In this document: positions 4,866 through 12,346 of the stretch, in pieces
Layout of the letters: each line of letters begins with the position of its first letter
Position numbering within the stretch: the first letter of the stretch is position 1
DNA from: a virus
Lineage: Duplodnaviria > Heunggongvirae > Uroviricota > Caudoviricetes
Length of the DNA stretch: 12,744 bases
Virus record (IMG/VR): IMGVR_UViG_2660238548_000016
Direction: 5' to 3' (one strand)
Program-made: the position numbers and the translations under genes
The notes under the pieces: model-generated
What the model was told of the DNA's origin: nothing
Databases searched by the model: none
Seen by the model: only the letters and a program-made list of their open reading frames with translations

Positions 4866-5273
4866 TTATTTGTTTGCGCTTCTTTTGCGAGCTTTAAGTA
4901 GTTCTTCAAAAAGTTTGTTGAAATTTTCAACTCGAGCACGCATCTCTGACAACAGGGCCTTTTGCTCTGAGTCAGGCAGTGCGTCGAACAGTTGAAGTAA
5001 CTCTTTTTGATCTTCTGTCAGAATGGCTGGCTGATTATTCGGGATCGGTTCGCCTGGTTGTTTATCTTCATCCCCAAAAAGAAGCCAAGTCGGTGAGCAC
5101 TGAAGCGCTTGGCTCAGTGCGAATAATCTTTTCCCCGCCGGCTGTGTTTCATCTCTTTCCCATTGAGAAATTGTTACGTGAGCCACTTTGACCAGCTTAC
5201 CTAATGCGGCCTGAGACAGTTTTAATTTTTTACGCCTATGTAAGAGGCGAGCACCGAAGGTTTCGTTTTTCAT
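4866..5273 (-). CDS. dicA: DicA-like HTH (XRE-family) prophage repressor, 135 aa (CI analog)
   Basis: MKNETFGARLLHRRKKLKLSQAALGKLVKVAHVTISQWERDETQPAGKRLFALSQALQCSPTWLLFGDEDKQP...MRARVENFNKLFEELLKARKR closely matches E. coli DicA. Divergent from the cro-like gene. Confidence 0.9.
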   Translation of the reverse strand: MKNETFGARLLHRRKKLKLSQAALGKLVKVAHVTISQWERDETQPAGKRLFALSQALQCSPTWLLFGDEDKQPGEPIPNNQPAILTEDQKELLQLFDALPDSEQKALLSEMRARVENFNKLFEELLKARKRSANK

Positions 5274-5349
5274 ATTAGGGAATTCTAATTTTTCTTGACT
5301 TAGGTTTCTCTACGATCTAGTTTCCTTAGGAAAATCTAAGGAGCTCGAT
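5274..5349. promoter_or_regulatory. dicA/dicC divergent promoter-operator region
   Basis: TTGACT at 5295-5300; inverted repeat CCTTAGG-aaaat-CTAAGG at 5324-5341 overlapping the dicC Shine-Dalgarno (AAGGAG); additional CTTAGG at 5299-5304 and ATTAGGGAATTCTAAT at 5273-5288. Confidence 0.5.
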
Positions 5350-5577
5350 ATGTTGAAAATTGATGCTATAGCGTTTTTTGGCAGCAAAACAAAGCTTGCC
5401 AATGCCGCAGGAGTTAGGTTGGCAAGCATTGCTGCATGGGGGGAACTGGTTCCTGAAGGTCGCGCGATGCGCCTGCAAGAGGCATCCGGCGGGGAACTTC
5501 AGTACGACCCCAAAGTTTATGACGAATATCGTAAGGCAAAGCGGGCGGGGCGGTTGAACAATGAAAATCACCCCTGA
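5350..5577 (+). CDS. dicC: DicC/YdaS-like Cro-type HTH regulator (75 aa)
   Basis: MLKIDAIAFFGSKTKLANAAGVRLASIAAWGELVPEGRAMRLQEASGGELQYDPKVYDEYRKAKRAGRL matches the DicC/YdaS family. AAGGAG 6 nt upstream; divergent from dicA. Confidence 0.85.
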   Translation: MLKIDAIAFFGSKTKLANAAGVRLASIAAWGELVPEGRAMRLQEASGGELQYDPKVYDEYRKAKRAGRLNNENHP

Positions 5578-6112
5578 ACAGGTTTGTGAGGCTCTGGATG
5601 CCTGGGTATGCCGACCAGGAATGACACAGGAGCAGGCGACGATATTAATCACGGAAGCATTCTGGGCTCTGAAAGAACGCCCGAACATCGATGTTCAACG
5701 CGTCACGTTTGATGATGGCGCGGTTGATCAACGGGCGCTGGGCGTTAACCGGGTGAAGATATTCGAACGCTGGAAATCTATCGACACCAGGGATAAGCGG
5801 GAAAAATTCACGGCGCTGATTCCGGCAATTATGGCGGCTATCCGGATCAGTGATTTCAGGTTGTATCGTGAAATTACTGACGGAAAAAGCATTACGTACA
5901 TGATCGCCGGGTTAAACAAAGAATATGGCGATGTGGTGGAGTCAGGGCTACTTTTTGCGGATCCAGCTGTTGTGGAACGTGAGACTGACGAACTTATAGA
6001 AAAAGCTATTGCTTTCAAGCGTGCGTATCGTCAGCAATACCAACATTACTTTGCAGATAAACAAATATCTGTCTGGGGTTCGTATGAGTATCGATGCGCT
6101 ACGATGGGCTAA
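5561..6112 (+). CDS. YdaT-family protein (183 aa; CII-position regulator or toxin-like protein of Rac/Qin-type prophages)
   Basis: ORF overlaps the dicC stop by 17 nt; position and N-terminal pattern (MKITPEQV...) fit YdaT-like proteins that follow the cro analog. Confidence 0.7.
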   Translation: MKITPEQVCEALDAWVCRPGMTQEQATILITEAFWALKERPNIDVQRVTFDDGAVDQRALGVNRVKIFERWKSIDTRDKREKFTALIPAIMAAIRISDFRLYREITDGKSITYMIAGLNKEYGDVVESGLLFADPAVVERETDELIEKAIAFKRAYRQQYQHYFADKQISVWGSYEYRCATMG

Positions 6113-7124
6113 AAAGGTGAAAACCGGCAGTTCATCCAGTAAGTCAGTATTGACCTGGCTTGCTGATATGTGCGGTGCCGATTTGTGTGCATACCCGTCT
6201 GTATCTGCACTGGCAGAAGTAACGGAACTGAACAAAAAGACTGTGCAGGACAGCTTACGACACCTGATGGAGATTGGGTTAATTGTTGATACCGGTGAGA
6301 GAAAAGGCCGGACAAAACAAATTGTGGTGTACCGACTTATCGGTGTTGAAGAAAGTGTTACCGAGGATGAATACACCCAAAAACGGGAGTCTTTAAAGGT
6401 AGGTAAAATTGGTACTGTTAATAAAAACAGAACCGAAAACGGTTATGTTTCAGCACAAAACAGCCCCAAAAACGGAACTCTTTGCTGCATGGAAAATAAC
6501 CAAAGACACCCAAATTTTCCATCAAAGACACCCAAAAACGGATCACGGAACCCAAAGGAACCCAAAGATTTAAACCCCACACATAACGCACGCGAGAGTG
6601 CTCCGACCAGTGAGCAGGAAGTTTTGTCGTTACAGGCAGTCCCCCCTGTATTCCTGGATGGCCTGAGCGAACCCATCGGAAAATTTCCGATGACCGATAA
6701 CTGGTATCCGTCACGGGATTTTCGACGACGGGCTGCGTTGTGGGGGATGGCTTTGCCGGAGACAGAATTCACACCTGCTGAACTTGCCGCATTCCGGGAC
6801 TACTGGGCAGCGGAGGGGAAAGTGTTTACGCAGGTTCAGTGGGAGCAGAAATTCGCCCGTCACGTAAATCACGTCAGGGCGCAGGTTAAACCAGTCAGCA
6901 AGGGGGTAAACCATGCAGCAGCACCAGGTGGAACCGCATCACGGGCAGTTCAGGAAATTCGGGCAGCACGTGAGCAGTGGGAACGTGAAAACGGATTTAT
7001 CAGCGACGGAAACGGCCTGGAAGCTGTGGGAGCTCATGGGGGAGGTTTATTCGAACCGCTGGACCCAGAAGAACGGGGCCGCACCTTCGAAGCTCTGGAT
7101 TGCACAGATTGGCGCGATGACTGA
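6084..7124 (+). CDS. Replication initiator (lambda O analog): N-terminal winged-helix HTH, C-terminal DnaT-like domain
   Basis: ATG at 6084 (MSIDALRWAKKV...) overlaps the upstream stop. HTH segment ...SVSALAEVTELNKKTVQDSLRHLMEIGLI...; C-terminal DNWYPSRDFRRRAALWGMALPETEFTPAELAAFRDYWAAEGKVF resembles DnaT-like phage replication proteins. Iteron-like repeats lie inside the gene. Confidence 0.75.
   Translation: MSIDALRWAKKVKTGSSSSKSVLTWLADMCGADLCAYPSVSALAEVTELNKKTVQDSLRHLMEIGLIVDTGERKGRTKQIVVYRLIGVEESVTEDEYTQKRESLKVGKIGTVNKNRTENGYVSAQNSPKNGTLCCMENNQRHPNFPSKTPKNGSRNPKEPKDLNPTHNARESAPTSEQEVLSLQAVPPVFLDGLSEPIGKFPMTDNWYPSRDFRRRAALWGMALPETEFTPAELAAFRDYWAAEGKVFTQVQWEQKFARHVNHVRAQVKPVSKGVNHAAAPGGTASRAVQEIRAAREQWERENGFISDGNGLEAVGAHGGGLFEPLDPEERGRTFEALDCTDWRDD
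6370..6570. repeat. Iteron-like direct repeats (putative replication origin) inside the O-like gene
   Basis: CCCAAAAACGG occurs three times (6376-6386, 6465-6475, 6531-6541), with related copies GAACCGAAAACGG (6429-6441), AGACACCCAAA (6505-6515) and GGAACCCAAAGGAACCCAAAG (6547-6567). Confidence 0.45.
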
Positions 7125-7578
7125 GCAGCAAATCCGGCAGGTCTGCCGCCAGTGCATGGACTGCTGCCGGGCGGGTGAAACATGGCCTCCGGACCTGGCT
7201 GAGTTTGTGGCGCTGATTTCGGAAAGCGGGGCCAATCCATTTGGTCTGACGGTGGATGCTGTGATGGAGGAGTACCGCCGCTGGCGCAATGAGTCCTGGC
7301 GATACGACGGAAGTGATAAGTACCCGTGGTCTCAGCCTGTGCTGTATCACATTTGCCTCGAGATGCGTTCAAAGGGGATTGAACGCCAGATGACCGAAGG
7401 GGAGTTAAAACGGCTTGCAGAACGGCAGCTGACGAAATGGGCAAAGCATGTTAGCAACGGCCTGAGTGTTCCGCCTGTCCGGCGACAACTGGCAGCACCC
7501 AAACGTCCTGCGGGACCAACGCCAATTGAGTTGCTGAAACAGGAATATGAACGCCGGAAAGCGGCTGGGTTTGTCTGA
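6913..7578 (+). CDS. Replication protein P-like (helicase loader), 221 aa
   Basis: AGGGGG 6 nt upstream of the ATG at 6913. WKLWELMGEVYSNRW...SKLWIAQIGAMTEQQIRQVCRQ...YPWSQPVLYHICLEMRSKGIERQMTEGELKRLAERQL parallels lambda P (W..A....ITT.EQ.....; YPW.....YWLV......; ...ELRRKAADEL). Overlaps the 3' end of the O-like gene by 212 nt in another frame. Confidence 0.7.
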   Translation: MQQHQVEPHHGQFRKFGQHVSSGNVKTDLSATETAWKLWELMGEVYSNRWTQKNGAAPSKLWIAQIGAMTEQQIRQVCRQCMDCCRAGETWPPDLAEFVALISESGANPFGLTVDAVMEEYRRWRNESWRYDGSDKYPWSQPVLYHICLEMRSKGIERQMTEGELKRLAERQLTKWAKHVSNGLSVPPVRRQLAAPKRPAGPTPIELLKQEYERRKAAGFV

Positions 7579-7610
7579 TTTGAGAAGTAATTTTTACCGG
7601 GAGGAAATTT

Positions 7611-8357
7611 ATGGAGACTGTTTTTGACGCACTGAAAGCGATGGGAAAAGCCACGTCGGTAGAGCTGGCTGCGCGACTTGATATCAGTCGTGAAGAAGTG
7701 CTGAACGAGCTGTGGGAACTGAGAAAGGCTGGCTTCGTTGATAAAAGCGTATACACCTGGCGTGTGGCTTATAACAACGTTCAGCAGGAACAGCCAGCGC
7801 CGGCAGAACTGTCGGAAGAAACCACCACGGCAACAGTCGCTAAAATTTCGGAGTGCGATTTAACTGCGACGGTTGAACAACGCGGACCACAAACGGCTGA
7901 TGAGCTGGCTACGTTGTTCGGTACAACATCACGCAAAGTGGCTTCAACGCTGGCAATGGCAATCAGCAAAGGTCGTCTGATTCGTGTAAACCAGAACGGT
8001 AAATTTCGTTACTGCATGCCGGGCGATAAGTTACCAGCAGAGCCGAAATCCGTGCCGGTAACGGAAAATGATGGTAAAGCCTTTCCTCAGTCAGCAGGTG
8101 TTGCGTTACCAGTACAGGAAGCTGCAACACAGGAAGATATTAAAACAGAAACTGTGGCTGATATTGTGCAATCGTTGCCATCGTTTACTGAAACGCGAGC
8201 GGATGACCTGGTTTTACCATCGCTGCATATGGCAAACCGCGAATTGCGTCGGGCGAAAAGTCATGTCCAGAAGTGGGAGCGAGTCTGCGCCGCGCTGCGG
8301 GAGCTGAACAAGCACCGAGATATGGTTGCCGGGATTTGTCGGAAGTCCGGGCAATGA
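7611..8357 (+). CDS. Phage protein with two tandem winged-helix (MarR-like) N-terminal repeats (DUF1627-like), 248 aa
   Basis: GGGAGG 6-8 nt upstream. Internal duplication: residues about 1-55 and about 85-140 share the pattern (ELA..L.(I/T)SR..V...L.....G.(V/I)), each resembling a winged helix. Confidence 0.65.
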
Positions 8358-8518: not shown

Positions 8519-8555
8519 CGCGATAACGGTCAAAAATCATGGCGCTGACACTTTT

Positions 8556-8798
8556 GTGCCACTGGAGATGACTGTACCTAAGTTCAGGGGAGAAGAACAC
8601 GTCCGGTGGGATGGTCGGGCCAGATTTAAAGGGCAGGTCATGGCTCCAGCCAGTACGCTGGCAATGGAGGCTGCCTGGCTGGAAATTGATATGGGAACCA
8701 CGCCACTCAGGGATTTACTGCCGGTCCAGAGAATAAATTCCTGTTACGGTTACACCACTGTGATCTTGCAAGTGCAGGAAAGTAGGTCTACACGGTAA
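8556..8798 (+). CDS. Hypothetical protein (GTG-initiated 80 aa, or 76 aa from the ATG at 8568)
   Basis: ORF in the operon orientation with no recognisable family and a weak ribosome-binding site. Confidence 0.3.
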   Translation: MPLEMTVPKFRGEEHVRWDGRARFKGQVMAPASTLAMEAAWLEIDMGTTPLRDLLPVQRINSCYGYTTVILQVQESRSTR

Positions 8799-9026
8799 CG
8801 CGAGTGCGTGTAACTTTTGATGTTATTTCCGTAGAAACACCGGACAAATTTTCGCTGGCAGGTCATGCTGAAGGTATAAATCTGCAGATTATGGACAATT
8901 ACGGATATCCGGCAAGAGCCGGAAAAAGCATGCCGCCTCTAATTCTCAGTGGAAGATGGACTTGATTATACTCATTGCATTGTCAGAAATAGTTATCCAT
9001 TAAAGGCTGGCTATTCCAAACAGGAT

Positions 9027-9050
9027 GTTGATTACAAAAATGTAATCAAC
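9027..9050. promoter_or_regulatory. Perfect 24-bp palindrome GTTGATTACA-AAAA-TGTAATCAAC (candidate operator) upstream of the binding-protein moron, with TATAAT at 9079-9084
   Basis: 10-bp perfect inverted-repeat arms separated by 4 bp, about 30 bp upstream of a consensus -10 hexamer and about 170 bp upstream of the ATG at 9217, in a strongly AT-rich intergenic region. Confidence 0.35.
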
Positions 9051-9216
9051 ATGTAAGGTTTATACTCTTCAATATGCGTATAATTTTCCTTATTTTGTTA
9101 ACTTTAAATAACAAGCTATGCACGAGGTAAAGTCGGATAAGTTTATCTGGATGTAATATATATTATTTGTAGTGTTTATAACTTTATTTCATGATAACCA
9201 ATAAAAGGAGTTTTTT

Positions 9217-9975
9217 ATGAGGAACATAATGGCAGGTTTTTTAATATTCCTGTCTTCTGCTGCTTATGCTGATATCAATCTGTATGGTCCTGGTGGCCCG
9301 CATACAGCCTTGCTTGATGCAGCCAAACTTTATGCCGAAAAAACAGGTATTATAGTGAACGTTCATTACGGCCCACAGAACAAATGGAATGAAGATGCCA
9401 AAAAAAATGCAGATATCTTGTTTGGCGCATCAGAACAATCTGCTCTGGCTATCATTCGGGACCATAAAGACAGCTTCAGTGAAAAAGATATTCAGCCTCT
9501 TTATCTGCGAAAAAGTATTTTACTGGTAAAGAAAGGTAATCCTAAAAATATCCGGAGTATTGACGACCTGACCAGACCCGGGATTGGCGTAATTGTTAAT
9601 GATGGTGGTGGTACCAGTAATACATCAGGCACTGGCGTCTGGGAAGATATTGCCGGACGTAAAGGGAATATAGAAACTGTCGCCGCAATCCGAAAAAATA
9701 TTATTTTATATGCGCCCAATAGCGGAACTGCACGTAAGGCTCTTGAGAATCAGCCTGAAGCAGATGTCTGGATAACCTGGGCTGACTGGGCAGCCAGTAA
9801 TCCAGAAATTGGTGATGTCGTGGAAATAGCGCCAGACTACGTGATATGGCGTGATATGAACATTACAGTACGTCAGGATGCAAATGATGAAACCCGTCGA
9901 TTTGCAGAATGGCTACAAACCGATGAAGCGGCGCCTGCATTCAAAAAATATGGCTGGACCAGGAAAGGCACTTGA
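9217..9975 (+). CDS. Secreted periplasmic substrate-binding protein, ModA-like (molybdate/tungstate-binding fold); orphan with no transporter partners in the window
   Basis: AAGGAG 7 nt upstream; signal peptide MRNIMAGFLIFLSSAAYA. ModA-like landmarks: ADILFGASEQS, LLVKKGNPKNIRSIDDLTRPGIGVIVND, C-terminal AFKKYGW. AT-rich codon usage unlike the neighbours. Confidence 0.8.
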   Translation: MRNIMAGFLIFLSSAAYADINLYGPGGPHTALLDAAKLYAEKTGIIVNVHYGPQNKWNEDAKKNADILFGASEQSALAIIRDHKDSFSEKDIQPLYLRKSILLVKKGNPKNIRSIDDLTRPGIGVIVNDGGGTSNTSGTGVWEDIAGRKGNIETVAAIRKNIILYAPNSGTARKALENQPEADVWITWADWAASNPEIGDVVEIAPDYVIWRDMNITVRQDANDETRRFAEWLQTDEAAPAFKKYGWTRKGT

Positions 9976-9981
9976 CATCCT

Positions 9982-10010
9982 CCACGTCCTTCAGGACGTG
10001 GATTCTTTTT
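9982..10010 (+). terminator. Rho-independent terminator after the binding-protein gene
   Basis: CCACGTCC-TTCA-GGACGTGG stem-loop followed by ATTCTTTTT. Confidence 0.7.
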
Positions 10011-10132
10011 CCGGATGCCGCGCCAGCGGCATGTAGGGGCAGCTCACAAAACGGAAAAAATTGTACGCTAAGCCTCGCCAGGTGAACTGAATTCATTCCG
10101 ATATGGGAATTCCCATATCGGACGAAAACGGC

Positions 10133-10160
10133 TTGCTGTAACGGCAGAGTTAAGTAGAAT
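10133..10160 (+). promoter_or_regulatory. Putative hok mRNA promoter (-35 TTGCTG, 16-bp spacer, -10 TAGAAT)
   Basis: Hexamers sit just upstream of GGTGCTTGAGGCTATCTGCCTC (10168 onward), which resembles the 5' end of the plasmid R1 hok mRNA as I recall it. Confidence 0.4.
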
Positions 10161-10167
10161 TGCTGCG

Positions 10168-10230
10168 GGTGCTTGAGGCTATCTGCCTCGGGCATGAACA
10201 CCAACGGCAGATAGATAAAAGCCCCACCCG
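10168..10230 (-). ncRNA. sok: Sok-like antisense RNA (antitoxin of the hok/mok system); boundaries approximate
   Basis: By analogy with R1 hok/sok, the antisense RNA should be complementary to the hok mRNA 5' leader. The minus strand here contains CUAUCUGCC...GGCAGAUAG followed by CCUCAAGCACC, the same architecture as the R1 Sok 3' region. Promoter not confidently located. Confidence 0.4.
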
Positions 10231-10256
10231 ACTATAAATCGAAGTGAGGCCCCTAT

Positions 10257-10469
10257 ATGCTCGTCACATATAGATTGCCTCTTACGGACCGAAAGGTCAA
10301 GGAGAAGCAGGCTATGAAGCAGCAAAAGGCGATGTTAATCGCCCTGATCGTCATCTGTTTAACCGTCATAGTGACGGCACTGGTAACGAGGAAAGACCTC
10401 TGCGAGGTACGAATCCGAACCGGCCAGACGGAGGTCGCTGTCTTCACAGCTTACGAACCTGAGGAGTAA
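10257..10469 (+). CDS. Mok-like overlapping reading frame (in-frame N-terminal extension of hok, 70 aa)
   Basis: In-frame upstream start sharing the hok stop codon, as mokC shares its stop with hokC in E. coli. Confidence 0.45.
   Translation: MLVTYRLPLTDRKVKEKQAMKQQKAMLIALIVICLTVIVTALVTRKDLCEVRIRTGQTEVAVFTAYEPEE
10314..10469 (+). CDS. hok: Hok/Gef-family type I toxin (51 aa membrane peptide)
   Basis: MKQQKAMLIALIVICLTVIVTALVTRKDLCEVRIRTGQTEVAVFTAYEPEE is near-identical in pattern to Gef/HokC; AAGGAGAAG lies upstream of the ATG. Confidence 0.85.
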   Translation: MKQQKAMLIALIVICLTVIVTALVTRKDLCEVRIRTGQTEVAVFTAYEPEE

Positions 10470-11296: not shown

Positions 11297-12346
11297 GTGC
11301 GGGTATTACTTCGACCTGTTCTGGTACCGGAACTCGGGCTGGTGGTCCTTAAGCCAGGTCGTGAATCCATGCAGGTATTTCACAATACCCGGGTACTGGT
11401 GGAGCCGGAACCGAAAAGCATGCGTAATCTGCCGTCCGGGGTCGTTCCTGCCGTTCGCCAGCCGCTGGTGGAAGACAAAACATTGCTGCCATTTTTCAGC
11501 GACGAACGAGTGATTCGTGCTGCTGGTGGTGCTGGTGCATTGTCTGACTGGCTGTTGCGCCATATTAAATCCTGCCAGTGGCCACACGGCGATTATCACC
11601 ACAGCGAAACTGTCATTCACCGTTATGGTACCGGCGCAATGGTGTTGTGCTGGCACTGCGACAACCAGCTACGGGACCAGACATCCGAATCACTCGAGCA
11701 ACTTGCTCATCAAAACCTGTCAGCATGGATGATTGACGTCATCGGTCACGCAATAAGCGGTACGCAGGAGCGTGAATTATCTCTGGCTGAATTATCCTGG
11801 TGGGCGGTCTGCAATCAGGTGGCGGACGCGCTACCGGAGGCCGTATTACGTCGTTCTCTGGGGTTACGTGTGGAAAAAATCCGCTCCTTGTACCGCGAAA
11901 GCGACATCGTACCGGGAGAGCAGACCGCCACCAGCATACTGAAGCAGCGCACAAAAAATATTGCGCTACCGCCTCACACCCACCAGCAACAGAACCCACC
12001 ACAGGAAAAGACGGTGGTCAGCATTGCCGTTGATCCGGAGTCTCCGGAATCCTTCATGAAACGACCTAAACGTCGCCGCTGGGTAAATGAGAAATACACA
12101 CGCTGGGTAAAGACACAGCCGTGTGCGTGTTGTGGTAAGCCAGCGGACGATCCTCATCATCTGATTGGTCATGGTCAGGGCGGAATGGGAACAAAATCCC
12201 ACGATATTTTCACGCTACCGCTGTGTCGGGAGCATCACAACGAGCTTCATGCGGATCCGCTGGCGTTCGAAGAAAAGCATGGTTCCCAGGTTGATTTAAT
12301 TTTTCGTTTTCTTGATCACGCCTTTGCAACCGGCGTGCTCGGGTAA
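11297..12346 (+). CDS. ydfU: YdfU-like DUF968 prophage protein (349 aa) with a C-terminal HNH/zinc-finger-like motif
   Basis: GTG start with GGAGG 5 nt upstream. Length and N-terminus MRVLLRPVLVPELGLVVLKPGRES... match Qin YdfU as I recall it. C-terminus CACCGKPADDPHHLIGHGQGG...CREHHNELH has the Cys/His spacing of an HNH-type fold. Confidence 0.8.
   Translation: MRVLLRPVLVPELGLVVLKPGRESMQVFHNTRVLVEPEPKSMRNLPSGVVPAVRQPLVEDKTLLPFFSDERVIRAAGGAGALSDWLLRHIKSCQWPHGDYHHSETVIHRYGTGAMVLCWHCDNQLRDQTSESLEQLAHQNLSAWMIDVIGHAISGTQERELSLAELSWWAVCNQVADALPEAVLRRSLGLRVEKIRSLYRESDIVPGEQTATSILKQRTKNIALPPHTHQQQNPPQEKTVVSIAVDPESPESFMKRPKRRRWVNEKYTRWVKTQPCACCGKPADDPHHLIGHGQGGMGTKSHDIFTLPLCREHHNELHADPLAFEEKHGSQVDLIFRFLDHAFATGVLG

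Follow-up and report, generated by a model that had tools for sequence, protein, structure and literature searches.

Iteron-like repeats inside the initiator gene of an Escherichia coli lambdoid prophage, a probable replication origin

We analysed 12,744 nucleotides of viral DNA (IMG/VR record IMGVR_UViG_2660238548_000016), the whole of which is called the window below. The window is the early region of an Escherichia coli lambdoid prophage; it is 100% identical to the corresponding DNA of strain 2011C-4251 and about 97% identical to prophages of the PPompW type. The element considered here is an array of short direct repeats within the coding sequence of a replication initiator gene. The initiator has three parts, an N-terminal winged helix (residues about 1–92), a low-complexity linker, and a C-terminal DnaT-like domain (residues 197–267), and the start of the next gene, which encodes a helicase loader of the lambda P type, overlaps the end of the initiator gene. 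The repeats encode residues about 97–162 (YTQKRESL...NSPKNGT...KTPKNGSRNPKEPKD), so that they lie in the linker between the winged helix and the DnaT domain, where an earlier sequence-only reading of this DNA had placed them. The genes and domains concerned are as follows.

6084..7124, plus strand: initiator gene, 346 amino acids (translation; Pfam DnaT and HTH_36; RefSeq WP_000020574.1)
6084..6359, plus strand: coding region of the winged-helix (HTH_36-type) N-domain, the presumed iteron-binding domain (HTH_36 matches)
6672..6884, plus strand: coding region of the DnaT-like single-stranded DNA-binding domain, residues 197–267 (Pfam and PDB matches)
7117..7578, plus strand: lambda-P-type helicase-loader gene (Pfam Phage_lambda_P, 1.6e-16; RefSeq 'replication protein P')

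The C-terminal assignment was clear, with a match to the DnaT profile (PF17948) of 62.8 bits (E 2.5e-17) and matches of residues 194–270 to the PDB DnaT chains 4OU6, 6AEP, and 9ZBT at E of about 1e-18; public annotation of the protein says merely 'DnaT-like ssDNA-binding domain-containing protein'. For the N-terminal helix-turn-helix (HTH) domain, the window protein scored 23.6 bits against HTH_36 (PF13730), for which the gathering cut-off is 25, and all 11 aligned relatives matched that profile at E of 1 or below, the best at 2.6e-13. Weaker matches of the N-domain were to the winged helices of other initiators (DnaD_N, RP-C, and Phage_rep_O). The window protein is not a member of Phage_rep_O (PF04492), its score with that profile being 14.7 bits (E 0.045), below the cut-off of 28.7. 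An AlphaFold2 model made without an alignment had a mean predicted local distance difference test score of 39.5 and was unusable.

The 11-mer CCCAAAAACGG occurred exactly three times in the window, at 6376, 6465, and 6531, always on the plus strand, and nowhere else on either strand, a count that confirmed the three exact copies first noticed. When the segment from 6370 to 6570 was shuffled with dinucleotide composition preserved, only one of 20,000 shuffles reached three non-overlapping copies of any 11-mer; this value replaces an earlier count of 271 in 20,000, for which the null was inflated by overlapping homopolymer words. The repeats thus exceed chance, and they are the only clustered direct-repeat families with at least three copies in the whole window. 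Aligning the copies gave the sites listed here, labelled as putative iterons.

6370..6393, plus strand: iteron 1, core CCCAAAAACGG at 6376–6386, read in frame +1 as T-Q-K-R
6396..6419, plus strand: decayed iteron copy AAAGGTAGGTAAAATTGGTACTGT, core at 6402, aligned with the '+318' iteron of relatives
6426..6449, plus strand: iteron 2, core ACCGAAAACGG at 6432–6442 with two mismatches; palindrome AACCGAAAACGGTT
6459..6482, plus strand: iteron 3, core CCCAAAAACGG at 6465–6475
6503..6526, plus strand: variant iteron, core CCCAAATTTTC at 6509–6519, of the near-palindromic form CCCAA(A/T)TTT(G)G
6525..6548, plus strand: iteron 5, the last full site, core CCCAAAAACGG at 6531–6541
6547..6567, plus strand: 10-bp tandem GGAACCCAAA, 2.1 copies (Tandem Repeats Finder), lineage-specific
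6392..6432: least stable 40-bp duplex, a candidate unwinding region (nearest-neighbour stability scan and GC profile)

The array therefore comprises four good sites together with a variant and a decayed copy, irregularly spaced at 22–56 bp. It extends from 6370 to 6548, mid-gene, and separates the DNA-binding domain from the partner-binding one; this arrangement fits a lambda-type origin, for which four or more similar sites of some 20 bp are expected. Iteron 5 was kept in all Enterobacterales relatives, and the variant form was also conserved in prophages of Edwardsiella, Serratia, and Plesiomonas and in phages LZ35, Bcep176, and GF-2. The shorter word ACCCAAA was found at 6375, 6508, 6530, 6550, and 6560. 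Three of these copies are additional to the 11-mers, as the sequence-only reading had claimed; the copy at 6508 is part of the conserved variant site, and those at 6550 and 6560 belong to the GGAACCCAAA tandem and hence are probably not conserved sites, since other genera do not conserve that tandem as repeats and carry non-repeated sequence in its place.

Fifty-four aligned copies, from the window and ten relatives, gave a consensus site of about 24 bp, AA-s-r-s-n-CCC-r-AAAAC-GG-k-A-n-y-s-TT, whose AA/TT, CC/GG, and s/s positions mirror one another around a point within the A-tract. The sites thus have partial dyad symmetry. Complementarity of the arms was 0.69 in the window and 0.50–0.69 in the 15 lineages described below, relative to a chance level of about 0.42 that is our own estimate, made without a tool, and that allows for two pairs out of nine being dictated by the search pattern. 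Full-text searches with the repeat strings returned no phage paper, the matches being to primers and papillomavirus E2 sites; the repeat is undescribed in the open-access literature searched, coverage of which was incomplete, and a prior description elsewhere is possible. Note that iteron 2 includes ACCGAAAACGGT (6432–6443), which is likewise a binding site for papillomavirus E2 at the human papillomavirus origin, of the form ACCG-N4-CGGT with an A-tract as spacer. This match reflects a coincidental likeness in design (a dimeric protein that binds a pre-bent A-tract at an origin) and implies no homology.

A repeat inside a gene may be kept for the peptide that it encodes, and the sequence-only reading had itself named, as the case that would speak against it, repeats that simply follow from a repetitive peptide and are not conserved as DNA. 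The argument has some footing, as three of the four best copies share a reading frame, in which they encode (P/T)(K/E)NG, and the spacings of 33 and 66 bp are multiples of three. However, copy 1 is read as ACC-CAA-AAA-CGG (TQKR), whereas copies 2, 3, and 5 are read as CCC-AAA-AAC-GGn (PKNG or TENG), and the variant is in the third frame. We also compared codon usage inside and outside X[KEQR]NG motifs in 13 genes, the motifs being chosen at the peptide level so that the choice was unbiased by the DNA. Inside the motifs proline was always CCC (26/26, as opposed to 22% elsewhere in the same genes), threonine ACC (13/13; 37%), lysine AAA (21/21; 49%), glutamate GAA (16/16; 50%), and asparagine AAC (40/40; 63%); only the third base of the glycine codon varied. 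In other genera the DNA encoding the HTH domain was 65–73% identical to that of the window, with third positions at 37–49%, near saturation, and yet the core of iteron 1 lay at an unchanged distance from the ATG (292 nt) and was identical at 10–11 of 11 positions in nine of the ten other genera. As the core is kept beside third positions so close to saturation, recent transfer cannot explain its conservation.

The same core array, with three to six copies starting 260–320 nt after the ATG, was present in 15 lineages from phages of Enterobacterales, Vibrio, Acinetobacter, and Burkholderia. These included Edwardsiella phages EPP-1 and GF-2, the E. coli podovirus phiV10, Vibrio phage H20, in which the array is five perfect 24-bp tandem units, Acinetobacter phages LZ35 and Ab105-2phi, Burkholderia phage Bcep176, EBPR podovirus 1, and prophages of Enterobacter, Kluyvera, Plesiomonas, Serratia, and Pandoraea. 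The comparison with relatives proposed in the sequence-only reading thus found the core kept where HTH identity falls to 35–48% and the linker peptides are unrelated. Copies occupied two or three frames in 11 of the 15 lineages, and in the Burkholderia-type arrays, with spacings of 17 and 22 bp, the core was read in all three. The arms differed by lineage and were roughly complementary within each (ACACCC/GGGTGT, ATCCC/GGGAT, AGTCCC/GGGACT, and GTACC/GGTAC), which is what a dimeric reader with evolving specificity would predict. We concluded from these results that the repeats are constrained as DNA, not as peptide, and the suggestion that they are a by-product of a repetitive low-complexity linker of the PKNG type, with no DNA function, is effectively refuted: the synonymous sites are invariant where usage elsewhere is 22–63%, and the core survives where the peptides differ completely. 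Frames, codons, flanking divergence, and breadth all exclude it.

Two distant homologues departed from this pattern. That of Moraxella phage Mcat8 carried different repeats, three units of 84 bp (1301–1552 of its examined stretch), apparently the result of a switch in iteron specificity; these units are built from GGGGGTACAATTTTGCA-like sub-repeats in place of the CCCAAAAACGG type. There were no repeats in Acinetobacter phage BS46, which matched over only part of the HTH domain. In phiV10 the iteron array is directly followed on its right by three tandem 12-bp units AACCAGTCATAT (1609–1644 of its examined stretch); the duplex there is among the least stable of the region, and the units are a candidate unwinding-element repeat.

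The HTH domain and the repeats were inherited together, with an exchangeable C-domain. The C-terminus joined to them was a DnaT domain in the window, in phiV10, and in the closest relatives of the window; members of the Edwardsiella, Serratia, and Plesiomonas group had a Phg_2220_C domain in its place, and unrelated C-termini were present in Pandoraea, Bcep176, and the Vibrio and Acinetobacter phages; the downstream partners also differed among lineages, being P-type loaders, DnaB-like helicases, or DUF6475 proteins. Conversely, ydaU of Rac-SA53 and an Actinobacillus phage had only the C-terminal half in common with the window. Homology to Rac-SA53 ydaU, which contains no comparable repeats, starts at about 6563–6567, directly after the array, and this marks the right edge of the module. 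From these alignments the HTH domain and the repeats appear to travel as one module with at least three types of C-terminal domain, a result that supports the parallel with lambda, whose origin iterons lie inside its initiator gene, drawn in the sequence-only reading.

In the window the order of genes is int, xis, exo, dicB, ydfC, ydfA, a cI-like repressor gene, cro, and a YdaT-family gene, followed by the initiator gene, the lambda P homologue, DUF1627, paa, hokD, DUF968, and RusA; the antiterminator gene, next in the source genome, falls just past the window end. The upstream context of the initiator gene (4866..6112) is the following.

4866–5273, minus strand: cI-like repressor gene
5350–5577, plus strand: cro
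5561–6112, plus strand: YdaT-family gene

The cI/cro/YdaT region is an early-right operon reading into the initiator gene, and the helicase-loader gene is directly downstream of the latter, in that operon after cro, as at a lambda-type origin. The YdaT-family ('toxin') gene stands in place of lambda cII, between cro and the initiator gene, whose start it overlaps by 29 nt; the same cro-YdaT-initiator arrangement is present in Rac-type prophages and in the small circular records described below. The cI-like repressor has only 135 residues, with an HTH_3 domain and without an S24 peptidase domain, and resembles the repressors of the O157 Sakai prophages Sp6, Sp9, and Sp10, which are not SOS-inducible (PMC2669165). 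On the 3' side of the replication genes is a moron region (8523–10469) with a frameshifted fimbrial gene (8523–9056), paa, encoding an AcfC-family adhesin (9217–9975), and hokD (10314–10469). A 13-bp tandem GTAATAACGTTTG (1.9 copies) occurs at 2968–2992, at the 5' end of the dicB gene region, and there are further two-copy tandems at 9840–9858, 10095–10122, and 11773–11800.

Phages lambda, P22, and L each carry different iterons inside O-like genes, and in-gene iterons serve as the origin in all lambdoid cases that have been characterised (PMC8022706). With the same tools we found in lambda four mid-gene iterons ATCCCTCAAAACGAGGGA, one copy being centred on AAATT. The window resembles the lambda origin in gene O in having four or five partly palindromic sites in the middle of the initiator gene that encode the linker between domains, in the make-up of each site (a C-rich arm, an AAAAC centre, and a G-rich arm), and in having one copy with an AAATT-type centre, as in lambda iteron 3. 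In both, specificity resides in the N-domain together with the iterons, as one module, and the C-domain is turned towards the loader; in both the P-type loader gene comes next, in the order cI-cro-X-O-P. The differences are that the window initiator is of the HTH_36 type and not Phage_rep_O, with a DnaT-like C-domain; that the distance from CCC to GG(G) is 6 nt in the window sites and 9 nt in lambda; and that the window sites are about 24 bp long and irregularly spaced, with the AT-rich stretch inside the array rather than to its right. Gene 18 of P22 and gene 18 of phage L likewise have family-specific short mid-gene repeats that were interpreted as origins (PMC8022706). Phage L has six copies of TGTCCAACGGA; its repeat sequence and initiator family differ from those of the window, and its origin, like ours, was assigned by inference only.

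The C-domain of the window initiator matches the C-terminal single-stranded DNA-binding domain of E. coli DnaT (primosomal protein I). DnaT itself has neither a sequence-specific winged-helix domain nor iterons, and it acts in PriA-dependent restart, not at a fixed origin. The origins of plasmids pSC101, RK2, F, and R6K are direct repeats bound by a winged-helix initiator beside an easily melted stretch. The window likewise combines multiple direct repeats, a winged-helix initiator, for which binding is predicted, and an easily melted stretch; unlike plasmid iterons, which are outside the rep gene and usually accompanied by DnaA boxes, its array is coding, and no DnaA boxes (TTWTNCACA) were found near it.

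Taken together with the gene context, the conservation described above makes it very probable that the array is recognised by a protein in a sequence-specific way and is linked to the N-terminal winged helix. We further propose, with a probability of roughly 0.8, that the array is the replication origin of the prophage, embedded in the initiator coding sequence, the repeats being iterons, that is, sites for the initiator's own winged helix that together form the origin. The array would work like ori-lambda with an initiator from outside the O family. Binding, unwinding, helicase loading, and initiation at the array are steps that we infer by analogy, and they may proceed as follows. Derepression would lead to early-right transcription through cro and ydaT, and the initiator would be made. 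Dimers of its N-domain would then bind four or five sites, each about 24 bp long (AA-N4-CCC-rAAAAC-GG-N5-TT), and the DNA, rich in A-tracts, would be bent or wrapped by them; the least stable stretch at 6392–6432 would melt, and the C-terminal DnaT-like domain would hold the single strand, recruit the P-DnaB complex with P supplied by the next gene, or do both.

Two physical features of the array bear on this proposal. The stretch from 6392 to 6432 (GC 0.24; z = 3.2) has the lowest duplex stability in the gene and 600 bp on either side. The A-tracts of the array have a sharp 11-bp periodicity, with a power of 1.27 relative to a maximum of 0.28 in about 480 other 201-bp segments, which is compatible with intrinsic bending. 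In six relatives the stability minimum adjoins the right end of the array, and in lambda, analysed as a control, the second least stable 40-mer of the region adjoins the last iteron.

Several observations count against an origin at the array. The AT-rich stretch corresponds to a decayed iteron that separates iterons 1 and 2. Unlike lambda, the window has no AT-rich DNA on the right flank of the array (GC 0.50–0.55), and the candidate for the unwinding element sought in the sequence-only reading lies within the repeats and not at the position that the element has in lambda. Homology of the N-domain to lambda O could not be demonstrated (Phage_rep_O E 0.02–0.045), although the helix-wing segment aligned by hhalign, at a probability of 1.8%, is topologically equivalent. 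Spacing is not helically phased across lineages (17, 18, 22, 24, 26, 33, and 55–66 bp); with a range of 17–66 bp we rejected helical phasing as a general property, and of the phasing looked for in the sequence-only reading only the 11-bp A-tract period of the window array stood. A scan of IMG/VR with the HTH alignment gave only E. coli loci at 97–100% identity and was used for population variation only. In these 78 loci the length of the array was constant, with no variation in copy number, and single-nucleotide polymorphisms in cores 2 and 3 were as frequent as those between cores (for example, 6440 C>T in most loci and 6474 G>A), indicating no extra constraint on the cores at the population level. 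Many such E. coli prophages are defective (PMC8112680), and relaxed selection is for that reason a plausible cause of the core polymorphisms. In strain 2013C_3963 the loss of one 10-bp GGAACCCAAA unit (the equivalent of window 6547–6567) frameshifts the initiator gene, which suggests that slippage at this tandem is a route to prophage inactivation; RefSeq annotates there (1257–1530 of its examined stretch) a truncated HTH protein and a DnaT-like pseudogene.

A further, indirect lead comes from small circular records. NZ_CP148379.1 (pZ1323HEC0067-2, from E. coli Z1323HEC0067) was deposited as a complete circular plasmid of 8,461 bp. Its replication genes are cI, cro, ydaT, the initiator gene, and P only, and it also encodes a Septu-like AAA ATPase/HNH pair, DUF5677, hokD, and rem. 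No other rep gene was found in it, and no open reading frame of at least 70 residues in the gaps. The array is intact and contains the only copies of the motif in the circle, which shares 2.4 kb with the window (5436–7828). The record is possibly a mini-replicon of the lambda-dv type or possibly an assembly artefact of an amplified prophage segment; if real, it would be a natural analogue of lambda-dv and would place the origin in the shared 2.4 kb. We discounted a second circular record, pZ1322PEC0161-3 (15.6 kb), in which the open reading frames of cro, ydaT, and the initiator are broken. These broken frames weigh on the other side as well, as small circular 'plasmids' of this kind may be assembly artefacts.

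The sites might bind the initiator and serve autoregulation, copy control, or incompatibility through titration or handcuffing, with opening and helicase loading taking place elsewhere. Conservation at the DNA level requires only a sequence-specific reader and does not say what follows binding, and the lack of an AT-rich region to the right of the array would suit such a role. We nevertheless consider it unlikely, as there is no other repeat cluster between int and Q, the least stable duplex of the region is inside the array, the 8.46-kb circular record has no other origin candidate, and the characterised in-gene iterons of lambdoid phages are all origins. A different explanation is that the conserved words are a recombination 'linker' at a module boundary, kept for swaps of replication modules among lambdoid phages. 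The breakpoint with the Rac-type ydaU and the Actinobacillus phage falls exactly at the end of the array, and three or more C-terminal types are joined there; but an 11-bp core is too short for efficient homologous exchange, that role has no need of multiple dyad-symmetric copies at fixed offsets, and use of the junction is better explained as a consequence of the domain architecture, which together make this explanation very improbable.

The dyad units could also act as RNA or single-stranded DNA hairpins, in translational pausing, attenuation, or as a priming signal, and not as duplex binding sites. A scan for promoters and terminators found nothing above chance (four terminators, with 3.5 expected); two terminators called on the minus strand were the palindromes of iterons and were rejected as such. 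That these two units score as terminator-like hairpins, and that the arms change together across lineages, are the points in favour of hairpins. The stems, however, are only 3–6 bp with A-rich loops, and what is best conserved is the asymmetric centre and the CCC/GG, not the potential for pairing. We regard a hairpin function as having next to no likelihood, and the reading of the repeats as iterons of an in-gene origin is the one that we retain.

The array is a new example of the lambda-type class with an "origin inside the initiator gene", and it extends the lambda paradigm rather than changing it. It provides a precise candidate origin for a replication module that is very common in prophages of pathogenic E. 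coli, such as the effector-carrying prophages of the PPompW type. It also provides a search rule for candidate origins, three to six copies of CCCrAAAACGG from about 290 nt into an HTH_36 gene, that reaches many unrelated phages of Enterobacterales, Vibrio, Acinetobacter, and Burkholderia, the core being unusually conserved across phages of several orders of Proteobacteria. The segment encoding the HTH domain and containing the iterons was present in 912 of 5,426 complete E. coli genomes (about 17%), at up to four places per genome, and several co-resident prophages may therefore share one origin specificity. Tentatively, and with more doubt than confidence, we suggest that HTH_36-type initiators and CC(C)rAAA(A/T)nYGG iterons are one very old, pan-proteobacterial class of origin specificity, in which protein identity dropped to about 35% with no change in the DNA core, the arms alone having changed, such that the initiator of one induced prophage could act on defective prophages and mini-replicons in the same cell, firing or titrating their origins. 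If this is true, many co-resident prophages of enterohaemorrhagic E. coli would share one origin specificity, which would bear on cross-activation, incompatibility, and the mobilisation of defective prophages that carry virulence genes, and the shared class would give a concrete mechanism for replication cross-talk between prophages in these strains.

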